From positions 414,249-478,248 of the forward strand of contig CANTAQ010000001.1 of the NCBI GenBank assembly GCA_947651825.1: DNA of 64,000 bases, in the 5' to 3' direction. The notes below the pieces were generated by a model. That model saw only the letters and a list, made by a program, of their open reading frames with translations, was not told where the DNA came from and did not search any database. Below, in pieces: positions 6,934-13,086 of this stretch. The position numbers and the translations under genes are program-made. Positions within the stretch are counted from its first letter, which is position 1. Each line of letters begins with the position of its first letter. The stretch is from an uncultured Clostridium sp. (GTDB lineage: Bacteria > Bacillota > Clostridia > TANB77 > CAG-508).

Positions 6934-7437
6934 TTATATATTGATTTCGACAATTTTATTTTGTCTCAAGCAACTTTGTACATCTAACAATCTTTGATTA
7001 TCTGATCCCCTGAATTTTATTTCTGGATTTTTTCTTTCTTCTACAAATCTTCCATCTACTAATACATCTATATTTTTTAATGTCTCATTTGTTGCTTCAT
7101 CATTTCTTGCCTCTAGTTGTTCTAATGTATATCCTGTATAGCACCATACATCAAAATTTGGTTTTTCTCTTTTTACATTTTCTATAAATTTGTTTACTTC
7201 TTTAATATTTTGTGGACATAATGGTTCCCCGCCACTTATTGTTATTCCATTTAATATTGAATTTTCTTTTATTCTATTTATAATTTTAGTTTCATCAAAC
7301 TCTTCTCCATAATTATAATCCTGTGCTATTTTATTATGGCAACCTGGACAATTGTGTGGGCAGCCACTTACAAAAAGTACTGCTCTCCAACCTGTCCCAT
7401 TTGATATACTTTCATCATAAAAACCTGCCATCTTCAT
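6934..7437 (-). CDS. nrdG: anaerobic ribonucleoside-triphosphate reductase activating protein
   Basis: Radical-SAM cluster motif CPHNCPGCHN. It sits downstream of nrdD. Confidence 0.9.
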   Translation of the reverse strand: MKMAGFYDESISNGTGWRAVLFVSGCPHNCPGCHNKIAQDYNYGEEFDETKIINRIKENSILNGITISGGEPLCPQNIKEVNKFIENVKREKPNFDVWCYTGYTLEQLEARNDEATNETLKNIDVLVDGRFVEERKNPEIKFRGSDNQRLLDVQSCLRQNKIVEINI

Positions 7438-7443
7438 TGGTAT

Positions 7444-9744
7444 TTAAGCCCCCTTTATACAGTTTTCTTCAAATCCTGTATGTGTTACTCTATCTTTTAA
7501 TTCATCTAATTTTGCTGCATTCCATCTTGATGTTGTTCCTACTAAATATCCAGTTATTCTTTGAATTGTATCTATATTTTCACTTCCGCATTTTGGACAT
7601 TTTAATAAATTTGCTTCTGCATTTTCAAACCCACAATCTAAGCATCTTGATCTTGTGTGGTTTATTGATCCATATCCCATATTATATTTGTCCATTAAAT
7701 CTACTACTGCCTTTATTGTTTCTGGATTATGTGTCGCATCTCCATCTAATTCTATATAGAAAATATGTCCTGCTCTACAAATTTCGTGGTATGGTGCTTC
7801 TGTTTTTGCTTTATGTTCTGCTGTACACTTATACCATACTGGTACATGGTTACTATTTGTGTAATATTTTCTATCTGTTATTCCTGGAATTGCTCCATAT
7901 GTCTTTTTATCTATCTTCGTAAATCTTCCTGAAATTCCTTCTGCTGGTGTTGCTAAAACTGAATAATTTAAGTTATATCTTTCTGAAAATTCATTTGTCA
8001 TTTCTCTCATTTCTGATATGATTTTTATTCCTAATTTTTGTGCTTCATCTGATTCTCCATGATGTTTCCCAATTAATGCTATTAAACATTCTGCTAACCC
8101 TATAAAGCCTATACTTAATGTCCCATATTTTAAAACCTCTTCTACTGAATCATTTGGTTTTAATTTTTCACTTTCCATCCACATTCCTGCCATAAGTAGT
8201 GGGAATTGTTTTGCAACTGCTGTTGCTTGGAATTGATATCTTTCATATAATTGTTTTGCTGCAATATTTGTATATTTTTCTAATTCGCTCATGAATATTT
8301 TTATAACAGTCTTTTTATATTGTTCTGTCATTTTTTCACTGCTACCAATTCCTAGTTCAAAGTGTAATCCTAATTTTTCTTGTGCTTTGAAAGCTGATTC
8401 TATTGCTATTTTAGGTAAGTTAATTGTTGTGAATGATAAGTTTCCTCTTCCTATTGATGTTTTTTCTCCATGTCTATTTTCAAATACTCTTGTTCTGCAT
8501 CCCATTGTTGCACATTCATAATACCATCTATTTGGATCTTTTTCATCCCATTTATCATTTTGGTTGAATGTTGAATCTAAGTTAATATAATTAGGGAAAA
8601 ATCTTCTTGCAGCTACTTTACAAGAGAATTCATATAAATCGTAATTTGGATCTTCTGGTAAATAATTAACTCCTCTTTTCTTTTTCCAAATTTGAATTGG
8701 GAATATTGCTGTTTCTGAATTTCCAACTCCTTCATATGTAGATTGTAACATCTCTCTTATTATACATCTTCCCTCTGCTGATGTATCTGTACCATAATTT
8801 ATTGAACTAAATACTACTTGGTTTCCTCCTCTTGAATGTATTGTATTCATATTGTGTATGAATGCTTCCATTGATTGATGGACTCTATCTACTGTTCTAT
8901 TTATTGCTATTTGAATTATTCTTTCATCACCTTTTAGTCCATTTAATTCTTTCTTAATATAATCTTTTGGTTGATAATCTAATAGTTTTGTTACATCTAC
9001 CTCTATAGCTTCTCCTTGTTTCTTTATTTCTTCAATAAAAGTTTGTTTAACATATGGTGCTAAAAAATAATCAAATGCTGGTATTGCTTGTCCTCCATGC
9101 ATTTCATTTTGTATTGTTTCCATTGATATACAACCTAAAATACTTGCTGTTTCTATTCTCTTTGCTGGTCTTGATGAACCATGTCCTGCTCTAAATCCAT
9201 CTTTTAAAATTTTATTTAATGGATGTTGCAAACATGTTAAACTTTTTGTTGGATAATAATCTTTATCATGAATGTGTACATATCCACCATTAACTGCTTC
9301 TCTTACATCTGAAGATAGTAAGAAGTCGTCTACGAATGGTTTTGTTGTTTCTGATGCAAATTTCATCATCATTCCTGCTGGTGTATCTGCATTCATATTT
9401 GCATTTTCTCTTGTTATATCATTTGATTTTGCTCCTATTATATCTACAAACATTTCCTTTGTTCTTGATTTTCTTGCAACATCTCTATTGTATCTATATG
9501 TTATGTAGCTTTGTGCTACTTCTTTTCTACTTGAACCCATTAATTTTTTTTCAACAGCATCTTGTATTTCATATACACTAACTTGATTTTTAGCTTCTAA
9601 TTGTCTTTCTACGCTTGAAGCTATTTTATTTGCTAAATCTATATCTACTCCTCCTACTGTTTGTGCCATTGATTTTGTTACTGCATCAATTATTCTTTCT
9701 TTATTGAATTCCATTACTCTTCCATCTCTTTTGATTACTTGCAT
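7444..9744 (-). CDS. nrdD: anaerobic ribonucleoside-triphosphate reductase
   Basis: N-terminal ATP-cone, C-terminal Zn ribbon CLDCG...CPKCGS, and glycyl-radical motif RITGY. Confidence 0.95.
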   Translation of the reverse strand: MQVIKRDGRVMEFNKERIIDAVTKSMAQTVGGVDIDLANKIASSVERQLEAKNQVSVYEIQDAVEKKLMGSSRKEVAQSYITYRYNRDVARKSRTKEMFVDIIGAKSNDITRENANMNADTPAGMMMKFASETTKPFVDDFLLSSDVREAVNGGYVHIHDKDYYPTKSLTCLQHPLNKILKDGFRAGHGSSRPAKRIETASILGCISMETIQNEMHGGQAIPAFDYFLAPYVKQTFIEEIKKQGEAIEVDVTKLLDYQPKDYIKKELNGLKGDERIIQIAINRTVDRVHQSMEAFIHNMNTIHSRGGNQVVFSSINYGTDTSAEGRCIIREMLQSTYEGVGNSETAIFPIQIWKKKRGVNYLPEDPNYDLYEFSCKVAARRFFPNYINLDSTFNQNDKWDEKDPNRWYYECATMGCRTRVFENRHGEKTSIGRGNLSFTTINLPKIAIESAFKAQEKLGLHFELGIGSSEKMTEQYKKTVIKIFMSELEKYTNIAAKQLYERYQFQATAVAKQFPLLMAGMWMESEKLKPNDSVEEVLKYGTLSIGFIGLAECLIALIGKHHGESDEAQKLGIKIISEMREMTNEFSERYNLNYSVLATPAEGISGRFTKIDKKTYGAIPGITDRKYYTNSNHVPVWYKCTAEHKAKTEAPYHEICRAGHIFYIELDGDATHNPETIKAVVDLMDKYNMGYGSINHTRSRCLDCGFENAEANLLKCPKCGSENIDTIQRITGYLVGTTSRWNAAKLDELKDRVTHTGFEENCIKGA

Positions 9745-9802
9745 TTTTTATTACCCCCTAAATTTATTTGACCTTATTTTATTGTAAAATTTATTTTTAT
9801 AA

Positions 9803-9818
9803 AGTTGCCATAGCAACT
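9803..9818. promoter_or_regulatory. palindrome AGTTGCCATAGCAACT + T-run (copy 1 of 3)
   Basis: Perfect inverted repeat 60 bp upstream of the nrdD start codon. Confidence 0.35.
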
Positions 9819-9920
9819 TTTTTAGCTCTACAATTTTTTTGTCGTTTCAAAGTAACTTCTTATCTCACTTTTTTCCAATTATTACATTTATATTACAAGT
9901 TTTTTTCATTCTCAAACATG

Positions 9921-10108
9921 AGATTTTGAACATTTTTTTACTTGTCTGTTGCCATGGCAACTTTTTCATAATATATTTGTATGAGTAACATAAAAAGTGA
10001 TATTAAATTACCTTTTTTCTTTGACAGATTTAGCCGACGATTTAATGATAGAATACCGTTATGCGGTAATTTAAAAGACTTAAAGATTAAAAGGTTATAA
10101 AACCAAAT
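9921..10108 (+). pseudogene. internally deleted duplicate of crp/fnr-family regulator gene with its leader
   Basis: Positions 9921-9999 are ~85% identical to 11041-11120, which covers the crp leader and the first 11 bp of the gene. They are fused directly to a homolog of the crp 3' end (11604-11710) that encodes LTDLADDLMIEYRYAVI*. Confidence 0.6.
9948..9961. promoter_or_regulatory. palindrome GTTGCCATGGCAAC + T-run (copy 2)
   Basis: Lies inside the duplicated leader. Confidence 0.35.
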
Positions 10109-10179
10109 AACTTTTCTCTTTACTTCTTTCTTTTTTAGCTATATAATACTTATTGTAAATTTCAAAGGGGGGTGTTATT

Positions 10180-10650
10180 TTGAATAAATTAACTATTATT
10201 TTATGTATCATATTTTCTATTATATTTTTAACTGTTGGGATTTTTGTTGGTATACAAATTCAACAAAAAGATTCTATAGAAACATCTGAAGAATCTAATG
10301 ATAAGGCTGAAGAAAAGCAGTCTAGTAAAGAAGATTCTGATGATAAAGTTGAAGAAAAACAGTCTAGTAAAAAAGATTCTGTAAATGATTTAAATAAAGA
10401 AATGGAAAAGCTTGCTATAGGAACTTTTAATGCAAAATTTGAAGTATACATATCAGAAAGTGTTTCAGGAGCTAAAGTTCGTAGCTTAGTTTCTTCAGTT
10501 AAATCAAGTAATGCAATTGAACCAGAACACCAAATTACTATAGAACCTTCTGATATTTCTACAAAAATAGTTGCTAGTAAAAAATATCTTGTAAAAGCTG
10601 AATATGGTAATGATGGTTATATAAATAAAATTTCTATAACAGAAAAATAA
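10180..10650 (+). CDS. membrane-anchored hypothetical protein with acidic tandem repeat
   Basis: N-terminal TM segment. DKAEEKQSSKEDS/DDKVEEKQSSKKDS is encoded by a ~39-bp tandem repeat (10300-10380). Confidence 0.5.
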   Translation: MNKLTIILCIIFSIIFLTVGIFVGIQIQQKDSIETSEESNDKAEEKQSSKEDSDDKVEEKQSSKKDSVNDLNKEMEKLAIGTFNAKFEVYISESVSGAKVRSLVSSVKSSNAIEPEHQITIEPSDISTKIVASKKYLVKAEYGNDGYINKISITEK

Positions 10651-10721
10651 GAATAACACCCACTATCATAGTTAAATCCTGTGGAGAAATATCTGAGAAC
10701 ATTGTTGTTTTCACAAGAAAT

Positions 10722-10758
10722 AAAAGGTGGCTTGTTTGGCACCTTTTATTTCTTTGTT
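10722..10758 (+). terminator. intrinsic terminator
   Basis: aaaaggtg-gcttgtttgg-cacctttt followed by a T-run. Confidence 0.55.
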
Positions 10759-11066
10759 TTGTGTTTTCTTTATTTCAGAATTTAATACATATTTACTAAC
10801 AGCTGTATCAAATGCTATGTCAAAGGTTTCATCAAATATTGTTGTATTTATTGTTGTAAATTTTCCTACTCCTGCTGGCATAGTACTCTCAGGTATTAGT
10901 TCTCAGAAAGTTTCTTTATTATATTGTGTCATTCCTGTATCTGGTCCTGTTGTTGAATTTATATAAAATGTAACTAATCCATCAACTACCAAACCATCTG
11001 TTAATAATATATTACAAGCTTTCTTCACTTTCAACCATAAGAATTTGAACATTTTTTTATTTGTCT

Positions 11067-11080
11067 GTTGCTATGGCAAC
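11067..11080. promoter_or_regulatory. palindrome GTTGCTATGGCAAC + T-run (copy 3), 35 bp upstream of crp start
   Basis: Same motif as at 9948 and 9803. Confidence 0.35.
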
Positions 11081-11114
11081 TTTTTTGTGATATATTTATG
11101 TAGGTGACATAAAA

Positions 11115-11738
11115 ATGAAGAGAAATTTTGATGTTGATAAATTCGTAAATAAATTATCAACTAACTGTAAAATATGCGAATTTAAAGAATTTCAAGAAGA
11201 TGAAGTTATAACCACTTTCTTAATGAGAAGAAATCAATTTTGTATTTTATTAGAAGGTGAAGCTCAACTCATAACATATGATAAAGATGGAAACAAAAAG
11301 ATTTTATATTATTATAAAAAGAATGATATTTTTGGTGAAGCTCTATTTAAAATATATATGGATAGAGAATTATTTGTTCTCGCAAAAAAGACATGCAAAA
11401 TTTTAATATTTCCTTATGATACAGCAGAAAACTGCACAGAAGATTGTTTATATCATATTGATCTATTAAGAAATTTACCAGACCTTATTTTACACAGTAT
11501 TGCTGAACAAAATTTTAGAATGATTTTATTAACACATAAAAGTGTTAGAGATAAATTACTTTCATATTTTAATGTATTATCAGTTGAAAATGGGAAGAAA
11601 ACTTTTGAATTACCTTTTTCTTTAACAGATTTAGCTGACTATTTAATGATAGAAAGAACTGCTATGATGCGTGAATTAAAAAGGCTTAAAGATGAAAAAA
11701 TTATAAAGAAAATTAATACTCAAATAACATTGCTTTAA
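11115..11738 (+). CDS. Crp/Fnr family transcriptional regulator
   Basis: cNMP-binding-like N-terminus. C-terminal HTH LTDLADYLMIERTAMMRELKRL. Confidence 0.8.
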   Translation: MKRNFDVDKFVNKLSTNCKICEFKEFQEDEVITTFLMRRNQFCILLEGEAQLITYDKDGNKKILYYYKKNDIFGEALFKIYMDRELFVLAKKTCKILIFPYDTAENCTEDCLYHIDLLRNLPDLILHSIAEQNFRMILLTHKSVRDKLLSYFNVLSVENGKKTFELPFSLTDLADYLMIERTAMMRELKRLKDEKIIKKINTQITLL

Positions 11739-11741
11739 AAT

Positions 11742-11780
11742 AATAAATAGGAGTTTTCTAACTCCTATTTATTATTTTAA
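11742..11780. terminator. bidirectional intrinsic terminator
   Basis: aataaataggagtt-ttct-aactcctatttatt flanked by T-runs. Confidence 0.6.
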
Positions 11781-12320
11781 TTTCATTCCATCTTTGAATG
11801 CATTTCCTACTACATCTCCAAGTACTCTATAAGTGTTACTTACCATATCAAATGTAATTATTTCCATTTTATCTACATCTATTTTTCCATTTTCATCTAA
11901 ATATTTCTCATCTATTGAGACATTTACAACATTTCCTATTAGTATTTCATCTTCATATGATTCCACTGTGCATTCTAAAGTTAATGGATATTCTTCAATT
12001 GTTGGTGCATCTATAAATTTTGATTTGGTCACATGTACACCAGCTTTTTTTATCTTGTCTTCATTGTTGCCTGATGCTATTCCAAAGTAATCTGAAATTG
12101 TTACAGTTTCCTTTGTTGCAAAACTTACTGTAAATGCTTTTTTCAACACCAAGTTATCAGTTGTTTTATGTTTTGCTAATGCTATATATATTTGATTATA
12201 ATCAGTCAGTCCTCCCCATGCTGCATTCATGGCATTTGCATTCCCATCTTTATCATAAGTTCCAATTATTAAAACTGGAAGTGGTAAAAAACTTGTTTTC
12301 TTTCCTAAATCTTTTCTCAT
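11772..12320 (-). CDS. flavin reductase-like (FMN-binding split barrel) protein
   Basis: LPLPVLIIGTYDKDGNANAMNAAWGG motif. The start was taken at MRKDL, which is preceded by GGAGG. Confidence 0.7.
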   Translation of the reverse strand: MRKDLGKKTSFLPLPVLIIGTYDKDGNANAMNAAWGGLTDYNQIYIALAKHKTTDNLVLKKAFTVSFATKETVTISDYFGIASGNNEDKIKKAGVHVTKSKFIDAPTIEEYPLTLECTVESYEDEILIGNVVNVSIDEKYLDENGKIDVDKMEIITFDMVSNTYRVLGDVVGNAFKDGMKLK

Positions 12321-12498
12321 TATATTACCTCCAATCATTTAATCGTTATAATATCATAACATCTGCTATTTATCAATACTTTATGTATTATTCTATTCTG
12401 CAAAAATTTGACATTTTTTCAGTTTTATGTTAACATATATATGTAGCTCTAAGCAACTTTGCAGTGCACAAATGCACAGAAAGGTAAGGTAAAAAATC

Positions 12499-12978
12499 AT
12501 GTTTGAAAACTGGAATCGGCAGCGCAAGATCAAGGCTTATCGCGGCAACAACGTGACCCTCAAGAACTATGACTCGGCTTCCCGGACCGTTGACCTGACC
12601 GTCGGCGGCAGCTGGCCCGTTCGCCTGGGTTTCGACCTGGTGGACTTCGACCAGAAGCTCCAGCTGGCTTTCAGTGGTGATCTCATCACCGGCGACGGCG
12701 AGGCCCTGTCCCGAGTCATGAAGGTTCTGTGGAACAGTCCGCTTCCCGACGTTTTCAGCAAGAATGAGCAGCTGAGAAAGCAGCTGGGTAAGCCCAGCCC
12801 CGCTCCTCTTGAGGCTCCTGCTGAGGAAAACGCCGAGAACCCGCTCGAAGACGGTGCCAAGTTGCCGGTACAGCCGGAACCCGAGCCGCTCTACTTCCGC
12901 GACATGGCCAGTTGCGTCGCCGGCATGCCCAATCAGGTGGATGTCACCGTGAAGGCGTCCTATCGGATCGACAACTGA
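12499..12978 (+). CDS. hypothetical protein encoded by GC-rich (~60% GC) foreign-looking gene
   Basis: 159-aa ORF with RBS AAGGTAAGG. Codons are CTG, GGC, CGC, ACC and AAG-biased, unlike the rest of the window. No domain recognised. Confidence 0.55.
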   Translation: MFENWNRQRKIKAYRGNNVTLKNYDSASRTVDLTVGGSWPVRLGFDLVDFDQKLQLAFSGDLITGDGEALSRVMKVLWNSPLPDVFSKNEQLRKQLGKPSPAPLEAPAEENAENPLEDGAKLPVQPEPEPLYFRDMASCVAGMPNQVDVTVKASYRIDN

Positions 12979-13033
12979 TTAACCCTACCATGACCAGAAT
13001 ATGGTCAAACACCTTTTGAAAAGGAGGTGATAA

Positions 13034-13086
13034 AGGAGTGTGATAGTTTCAACTGAAACACTATCTCACTCCTTTATACTTTTATT
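13034..13086. terminator. bidirectional intrinsic terminator (19-bp stem)
   Basis: aggagtgtgatagtttc-aactg-aaacactatctcactcct followed by a T-rich tail. Confidence 0.6.

Follow-up and report, generated by a model that had tools for sequence, protein, structure and literature searches.

The nrdD gene of an uncultured Clostridium sp., which encodes the class III (anaerobic) ribonucleotide reductase (RNR), is followed on its upstream side by a short fragment that repeats the leader and the 3' end of an intact regulator gene of the Crp/Fnr family (hereafter crp) 1.1 kb away. This raises the question of which of the two copies is the original, and of what the DNA between the fragment and nrdD does. 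We analyzed the locus within a stretch of 64,000 nucleotides (nt) (GenBank assembly GCA_947651825.1, contig CANTAQ010000001.1, positions 414,249-478,248; "the window"), and coordinates below are those of the window. The probable answer, which we hold with good though incomplete confidence, is that the fragment is the pseudogenised original of the Crp/Fnr-family gene at its ancestral site, while the live crp is a relocated copy; this degree of confidence applies to the best explanation as a whole, i.e., the pseudogenised original together with the model of the control region set out below. There is nothing unusual in the remnant as such, which arose by duplication and decay; it is of value as a marker, leading to a module of nrdG, nrdD and a divergent crp (nrdG-nrdD<>crp) that stays linked while its surroundings change.

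A decayed copy of crp and its leader upstream of nrdD

Within the window, blastn aligned the fragment to the crp region in two blocks: i) a leader match of 9889-9996 with 11008-11115, which is ungapped and 84.3% identical over 108 nt (E 3e-29), and ii) a tail match of 10003-10101 with 11605-11707 at the 3' end of crp, which is 79.8% identical over 104 columns with two gaps (E 1.5e-20). The local alignment scores of leader and tail were 132 and 105 respectively, as compared with 23.4 ± 3.1 (maximum 34) and 23.7 ± 2.9 (maximum 36) under 300 dinucleotide-preserving shuffles. Thus AT-rich background is ruled out, since both scores lie more than 25 standard deviations above the shuffles. An earlier annotation of this stretch made from its letters alone (the sequence-only reading) had reported such a repeat of the crp region at 9921-10108; the repeat is real, and both peptides quoted in its support are correct. 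It had put the duplicated part at ~80 bp including the first 11 bp of crp, of which the duplication stands but the lengths do not: the duplicated leader spans ~107 nt from 9889, and only ~4-6 nt of the coding start are recognisable.

That the fragment is an internal-deletion derivative of a crp/fnr-family gene together with its leader, as also proposed there, agrees with the absence of ~485 bp of internal crp coding sequence. Moreover, the start codon was changed from ATG to GTG (9997-9999) after a 1-nt insertion, the ribosome-binding site was changed from AGGTGA to GAGTAA, and the reading frame is broken, with indels of 1, 2, 3 and 10 nt in the tail. Past the 10-nt deletion the tail homology is weaker and extends as far as ~10113, the region of the crp stop codon, while tblastn on the remnant returned a match to crp residues 168-195 alone (62% identity). 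With its homology to a functional paralogue, its coding capacity gone and an intact gene at the orthologous position in relatives, the fragment is a pseudogene.

The remnant at the probable ancestral position of crp

A one-genome-per-species scan for relatives of the regulator gave 34 loci, all from uncultured Clostridia (some of them labelled Candidatus Scatovivens); L001 is of the same species as the window, L020 stops short of nrdD, and the remaining 32 are from other species. In 32 of these 32 a single intact crp is divergent from nrdD, from which 246-389 bp (mostly ~250 bp) of spacer separate it, and two further contigs (L044 and L045) have the same divergent arrangement. In the window, the remnant starts 252 bp from nrdD (9996 minus 9744). 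Therefore the remnant most probably marks the ancestral position of crp and the intact gene has moved, because crp sits divergently beside nrdD in all 32 other species. This reverses the direction assumed in the sequence-only reading, according to which a duplicate had been placed into the nrdD upstream region; as to whether related genomes carry an intact second crp copy at this position, they do not, for their only copy is here.

The order nrdG-nrdD<>crp is the sole synteny kept across these genomes, and the linkage of nrdD and crp persists with a different nrdD subfamily (27% identity) and with two nrdD genes. In L004, L006, L007, L018, L031 and L033, two nrdD genes stand in tandem by crp, being ~58% and ~27% identical to the NrdD of the window; many other loci carry the 27%-type nrdD alone, and the regulator and both palindromic boxes described below are retained in every case.

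Downstream of crp, the unrearranged order was seen in contig L043, from a close relative. This contig starts with an intact crp 3' end (LKRLKDEKIIKKVNNQITLL followed by the stop codon), and 68 nt further on carries a homologue of orf156, the gene next to the remnant in the window, with a homologous promoter region. The orf156 homologue is followed by a convergent, full-length geneX (431 aa), and then by a flavin reductase gene whose product is 93% identical at the amino acid level to that of the window. The ancestral order, nrdG <- nrdD <- ~250-bp control region -> crp -> orf156 -> <- geneX <- flavin reductase, is largely established. The closest Crp homologues (P0008, P0009, P0010, P0013 and P0016) stand in plain nrdD<>crp contexts, with orf156 downstream in none of them; the geneX homologues of more distant species lie in unrelated neighbourhoods, and no second unrearranged locus was found among those contexts; and the orf168 homologues (L038-L042) are preceded by a tRNA gene, not by crp. 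One apparent hybrid locus, L050 (ENA k105_87379), was set aside: within crp, between ~830 and 980, it switches from 100% L029-like to 100% window-like sequence, the L029 type differing in nrdD subfamily and in spacer. An assembly chimera across a conserved gene is the probable explanation, with a natural recombinant as the alternative.

Each leader copy is closest to the other, at 84% identity, as compared with at most 81% to the 10 other species compared, and at most 75% wherever the alignment spans most of the leader. Furthermore, the remnant tail is further from all orthologues than the live tail is. Both features fit a model in which crp was duplicated within the lineage and one copy then decayed neutrally. 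They also bear on the possibility that the live crp is foreign, i.e., that it arrived by horizontal transfer from a related species and the resident gene then decayed. Such an origin would account for the 16-20% difference between the copies, and strains of this group are indeed mosaic, with stretches of 100% identity beside patches of 76-90%. However, leaders closer to one another than to any of the species compared, with one copy decaying and the other constrained, are what a duplication would leave, at least as far as the sampled donors go, and we consider a foreign origin improbable.

A duplicated and decayed original might still be functional, either as a regulator-controlled promoter for orf156 or through a 25-aa peptide (GTG 9997 to TAA 10074) in which the first helix of the helix-turn-helix (HTH) is retained. 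The ancestral promoter TTGCCA-17-TATATT is still promoter-like, no terminator lies between the remnant and orf156, and the GTG-started frame runs through SLTDLADDLMIE. On the other hand, the conserved TG of the extended -10 is gone along with the ribosome-binding site, orf156 has a promoter-like TTTACT-17-TATAAT of its own, the other small open reading frame (ORF) here (9981-10100) is without an ATG in L001, L035 and L036, and a single helix is unable to bind DNA. We therefore give a functional remnant little chance, and take the fragment as a dead copy.

A conserved, probable control region between nrdD and crp

In every species, the nrdD-crp spacer holds two copies of a 14-bp palindrome, GTTGCYATRGCAAC (GTTGC-N4-GCAAC). 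Across ~400 kb of fetched loci the palindrome is confined to this spacer, and a search of the window at up to two mismatches gave four matches versus 0.33 expected. When all species were aligned on the palindromes, the arms were invariant while the surrounding spacer DNA diverged; the sole change in an arm (GTTAC...GCAAC, in L016 and L024) is uncompensated. Judging by its conservation, GTTGCYATRGCAAC probably serves the Crp/Fnr-family regulator as operator, and the occurrence of a conserved palindrome solely adjoining the gene suggests that the regulator would bind the 14-bp two-fold symmetric site as a dimer. The copy near nrdD is called box 1 and the one before the ancestral crp box 2; in the window the relocated leader carries a third (box 3).

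A direct repeat (RTTACA-N5-RTTACA) stands between box 1 and box 2, 76.5-78.5 nt from the former and 65.5-67.5 nt from the latter in the phylogenetic footprint (in which counts are out of 33 other loci, namely the 32 other species and L001). The spacing between the boxes is 142-145 nt. Two exceptions (154 and 155 nt) have an extra 10-11 nt, equal to one helical turn, and the extra nucleotides fall between the repeat and box 2. Beside nrdD in the window, box 1, the repeat and box 2 are all complete and the boxes are 144 nt apart; the leader of the dead copy was kept, and with it the whole ancestral three-element unit at nrdD. The duplication has its left edge inside the direct repeat (at 9889), and the live copy took the right half of that repeat only.

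The two boxes stand in different, fixed positions relative to predicted promoters. On the nrdD side, the first base of a TAAAAT/TAGAAT hexamer is 29.5-30.5 nt from the centre of box 1 in 31/33 loci (29.5 nt in the window), which would place box 1 at -41.5 or -42.5, as in class II activation by Crp/Fnr proteins. On the crp side, an almost invariant TGnTATAnT starts 14.5 nt from the box centre in 31/33 loci and in the live copy of the window, and the TTGCYA half of the box is 17 nt upstream of this extended -10; the box thus covers the -35 with its centre near -29.5, which implies autorepression. Taken together, the footprint suggests a mechanism: a regulator dimer at box 1 would activate nrdDG in the class II Crp/Fnr manner, and one bound across the -35 of the crp extended -10 promoter (at box 2 in the ancestor and box 3 today) would repress synthesis of the regulator itself.

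Several of these features speak to the proposal of the sequence-only reading that the truncated crp duplicate and its leader were put upstream of nrdD and that the palindrome at 9948 may thereby have been co-opted for nrdDG regulation. The remnant and its palindrome are indeed upstream of nrdD, and the rigid, helically phased spacing of box 1, repeat and box 2 allows box 2 a role in nrdD control, the phasing hinting at cooperation between the sites. However, the remnant is at the orthologous crp position, and both palindromes are ancestral there, in 32/32 other species; the palindrome at 9948 corresponds to the putative operator of the ancestral crp promoter, found in every species at the spacing given above from the nrdD-proximal palindrome; it is the intact copy that has broken into another gene, geneX; and the site next to nrdD is a separate, exact copy of the palindrome at 9804-9817, which had been missed. 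Co-option by duplication is accordingly very unlikely, and if the palindrome at 9948 does serve nrdD, it is retained rather than co-opted. What the comparison supports well is the more general idea of Fnr-type control of nrdDG via the palindrome, with box 1 as the site positioned to act on nrdD.

The palindromes could alternatively be RNA hairpins, terminators or generic repeats instead of protein sites: 9948-9961 and 11067-11080 were flagged as terminator-like (a 5-bp stem and then a T run), and a fold of -9.3 kcal/mol is predicted for box 1 when its A/T flanks are included. Yet the core hairpins reach -5.2 kcal/mol, with 28 and 11 of 200 shuffles at least as stable, as compared with -23.2 kcal/mol for the genuine terminator at 11735-11780. 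Moreover the palindromes lie between divergent promoters where there is no gene to terminate, their arms are invariant but for the one, uncompensated change in L016 and L024, and they are confined to this spacer, a search of 9000-12500 against Rfam returning no relevant match. A role as hairpins is hardly tenable, and the palindromes are better taken as the putative operators described above.

Known RNR-associated operators were not found in this region. At up to three mismatches no NrdR box (16-bp acaCwAtATaTwGtgt, usually paired) was present in the spacer, the whole window having four against 3.7 expected; and at up to one mismatch the FNR consensus TTGAT-N4-ATCAA was absent from 9745-11114, with eight in the window against 10.5 by chance.

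The direct repeat ATTACATTTATATTACA occurs elsewhere in the 64 kb as an exact copy (55773-55789) and as a 1-mismatch copy (38766-38782, minus strand), and at up to two mismatches the window holds five matches versus 1.2 expected; the register is 11 bp. As a sequence pattern, these copies suggest that some factor of broader regulon acts in the nrdD-crp spacer as well. One copy of the repeat is ~100 nt upstream of a pilin-like gene. A bolder version, which we rate as rather doubtful, is a three-site nucleoprotein switch in which a second factor, acting genome-wide, would occupy the repeat between box 1 and box 2 and the spacing would vary by whole helical turns only; control of nrdD would need both boxes, and the regulator would be a new redox or oxygen sensor (via C18/C107/C111/H114) dedicated to class III RNR in a large clade of uncultured gut Clostridia. 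Such a switch, if true, would explain why the lineage kept the leader of a dead gene after crp had moved.

Over 9600-9750 and 10000-11200 the window shares 100% identity with L001, whereas identity falls to 76-90% over the ~200 bp between (9750-9950 versus L001 4640-4840). This divergent patch is the spacer among the nrdD -10, box 1 and the repeat, all three of which are untouched, and either recombination or fast turnover of the spacer may have produced it. At box 2 of the dead copy there is little local divergence between strains.

History of the rearrangement

The live crp, from -107 to its stop codon, stands in place of the first ~340 codons of geneX. On the minus strand, window 11037-10765 matches residues 338-428 of the L043 geneX (74% identity; tblastn, E 4.7e-37), and the geneX homology ends at ~11006-11009, exactly at the start of the duplicated leader, with a junction microhomology of 2-4 nt. 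The right junction of the relocated segment is at ~11753, ~15 nt beyond the crp stop and within a terminator with a 21-bp stem. The ~15 nt after the live crp stop are an exact inverted copy of the 3' end of the flavin reductase gene, and L043 has no such stem; the stem at 11735-11780 may be templated filler made by the rearrangement. Between the two crp copies are 905 bp, which hold orf156 and the geneX 3' fragment.

The rearrangement requires three novel junctions. It would have proceeded either by a) a tandem duplication that ran from crp -107 as far as geneX codon ~340, with two deletions, or by b) a copy-insertion via microhomology, with one deletion; afterwards the start codon and the ribosome-binding site of the original crp would have been lost, together with ~485 bp from its interior. 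A metagenome scan for orf156 added one contig (L035) with the same rearranged allele and gave no intermediate with two intact crp genes. Although the source is probably metagenome-derived and the related contig L050 is probably chimeric within crp, a chimeric join or mis-resolved repeat in the assembly is practically out of the question, since four independent assemblies, made by different projects (L001, L035, L036 and L037), agree on the arrangement and on its junctions, and copies only ~84% identical are not one collapsed or expanded repeat.

Several points weigh against the explanation of the remnant as a pseudogenised original within an operator-controlled region: i) the positions -41.5 and -29.5 derive from predicted -10 hexamers, and such hexamers are common in very AT-rich DNA; ii) the box could belong to a different, unlinked factor; iii) the 10 constrained positions of box 2 would survive by chance at 16% divergence with p ~0.17, and the test for selection is underpowered; iv) the ancestral order downstream comes from a single 4.3-kb contig (L043), which carries no more of crp than its last 63 nt and ends short of nrdD; v) more than one order and number of rearrangement steps fits the junctions. 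Where the explanation holds, the rearranged allele is a natural experiment, in which a regulator gene was uncoupled from its divergent control region and the region was left in place.

The regulator and the systems closest to it

The crp product (207 aa) matches Pfam cNMP_binding (PF00027, E 1e-9, 38.7 bits versus a cut-off of 27.5) and HTH_Crp_2 (PF13545, E 9e-8, 32.4 bits versus 27). Its AlphaFold2 model (pLDDT 81) has strands over residues 22-100, a long dimerisation helix (112-139) between the domains, and helices at 170-177 and 181-193. Foldseek matched the model with probability 1.00 to NtcA, FNR, CRP, Vfr, Clr and CLP at 15-18% identity, with NtcA, FNR and CRP at the top. The regulator is a member of the Crp/Fnr superfamily but not FNR proper: the best NCBIfam models (CRP, FixK, PtrA and FnrL) scored 17-27 bits, far below their cut-offs of 266-300, and of the cysteines of the FNR pattern only C18 is invariant in the N-terminal part, C21 not being conserved. 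The ligands of FNR itself, an O2-sensing [4Fe-4S] regulator, are three cysteines clustered at the N-terminus and a fourth that follows the beta-roll. C18, C107, C111 and H114 are invariant across all orthologues examined, C43 is nearly so and C94 is variable; C107 and C111 are in a loop just ahead of the dimerisation helix in the model. As a residue pattern, C18/C107/C111/H114 suggests a redox, metal or Fe-S sensor. The family comprises over 1000 clusters at 90% identity, which bear generic names only, and no paper on a Clostridial nrdD-linked Crp/Fnr regulator was found in the searchable literature, itself incomplete.

Among known systems, the closest is the FNR-nrdDG pair of E. coli and Salmonella, with Anr/Dnr in Pseudomonas as its counterpart: as predicted here, a dimer of the Crp/Fnr superfamily acts on palindromic sites at the promoter of the anaerobic RNR. 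Control of nrdDG by FNR in E. coli, which the sequence-only reading had cited as established, is supported by the literature (PMC4009431). The likeness extends to the negative autoregulation of fnr, where a site in the own promoter is placed to repress, and to the 14-bp palindrome of 5-N4-5 form that both systems use. The window regulator differs from FNR in several respects: it is a dedicated neighbour of nrdD, whereas FNR is a global regulator encoded elsewhere; its putative operator is GTTGC-N4-GCAAC as compared with TTGAT-N4-ATCAA; its cysteines are C18/C107/C111 (with H114) as compared with an N-terminal cluster and C122; and its identity to the solved FNR is 18%.

The predicted nrdD promoter would resemble the class II promoters of E. 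coli FNR and CRP (-41.5) in having box 1 centred 41.5-42.5 bp upstream of the predicted start, a good -10 and no -35 (31/33 loci and the window), the position being derived from predicted -10 hexamers. A class II site centred at -41.5 is also known for Fnr of B. subtilis. By sequence, the closest solved structure is that of Listeria Lmo0753, a PrfA-like Crp/Fnr protein, to which the regulator aligns over its full length (beta-roll, dimerisation helix and HTH), but the E is only 3e-5, the gene contexts differ and no target common to both is known. NrdR, which usually regulates RNR genes in Firmicutes, is comparable as a transcriptional control dedicated to RNR; however, it is of a different protein family, and nothing like an NrdR box is present in the spacer. 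The candidate nrdD regulator proposed here from sequence is thus of a Crp/Fnr type distinct from both FNR and NrdR.

In its origin, the remnant follows the usual course of duplication and pseudogenisation: each copy has the promoter and both ends of the gene, one of them has an internal deletion, frameshifts and a lost start, and orthologues tell which site is ancestral. It differs in that the dead copy here is the one left in the conserved regulatory context. That context, an nrdD-crp control region conserved in gut Clostridia, is apparently undescribed. The module nrdG-nrdD<>crp is found in more than 30 species with a sharply defined candidate operator and a fixed promoter geometry, and so offers a testable hypothesis of how anaerobic synthesis of deoxyribonucleotides is turned on in many uncultured gut Clostridia.

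Neighbouring genes and other features of the window

The features of the locus are collected in Table 1. The gene orf156 is rare, with five homologue clusters in all, and scans of orf156 and geneX against PHROG, Pfam and NCBIfam gave weak, uninformative matches only.

Table 1. Features of the nrdD-crp locus, in order of position in the window
Feature	Position	Strand	Basis or remark
nrdG, anaerobic RNR activase	6934..7437	-	TIGR02491 NrdG (E 6.5e-53); Pfam Fer4_12 and Radical_SAM
nrdD, class III (anaerobic) RNR	7444..9744	-	Pfam NRDD (E 6.8e-190) and ATP-cone; NCBIfam NF005497 (E 1.6e-293)
Predicted nrdD -10 hexamer TAAAAT, no usable -35	9776..9781	-	Conserved hexamer position
Box 1, GTTGCCATAGCAAC, with A/T-tract flanks; centre ~41.5 bp upstream of predicted nrdD start	9804..9817	.	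All 32 other species; variant arm in L016 and L024
Direct repeat ATTACATTTATATTACA	9881..9897	+	32/33 other loci, at fixed distance from both boxes
Probable ancestral crp leader, copy 1 of the duplicated 107 nt	9889..9995	+	84% identity to 11008-11114; orthologous distance from nrdD
Box 2, GTTGCCATGGCAAC, putative ancestral crp operator over the -35; now ahead of the remnant only	9948..9961	.	
crp remnant: start stub (GTG 9997-9999), join near 10001-10003, decayed last ~110 nt of crp	9996..10113	+	
orf156, small membrane-anchored protein; ancestral downstream neighbour of crp	10180..10650	+	
Hairpin between convergent orf156 and geneX	10715..10754	.	Perfect 15-bp inverted repeat
geneX 3' fragment, lipoprotein-like, cut off at ~11008; in-frame TGA 10903-10905	10765..11010	-	
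Probable relocated crp leader, copy 2; right half of direct-repeat motif only	11008..11114	+	
Box 3, GTTGCTATGGCAAC, putative operator of live crp promoter; TTGCTA half = -35	11067..11080	.	
Predicted extended -10 of live crp (TGaTATATT)	11088..11096	+	Scan: TTGCTA-17-TATATT with TG
Intact crp/fnr-family regulator gene, probable relocated copy, 207 aa	11115..11738	+	Pfam, AlphaFold2 model, Foldseek
Terminator common to crp and the convergent flavin reductase gene	11735..11780	.	Perfect 21-bp stem; -23.2 kcal/mol, z -10
Flavin reductase-like gene; after geneX in the unrearranged relative	11772..12338	-	Pfam Flavin_Reduct (E 1.7e-15); 93% amino acid identity to L043

Other features of the window were noted in passing. 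Beyond the flavin reductase gene, a ~600-bp island (12450-13050) has a GC content of 55-62% in a genome of 24-30% GC. The ORF within it (12499-12978, 159 aa) had no match in Pfam, NCBIfam or PHROG, and its counterpart at the same place in L001 is 57% identical at the amino acid level, as compared with 91-100% for the flanking genes. The pilin-like gene at 55887-57654 is apparently frameshifted: its ATG at 55887 (MKRNN...) is 1 nt out of frame with a 580-aa ORF, which starts at a TTG at 55912 and whose N-terminus (IALIITIIVMLILVAV) resembles a prepilin-type helix. An intergenic (GT)10 microsatellite is present at 38606-38625, upstream of the gene at 37107-38354.

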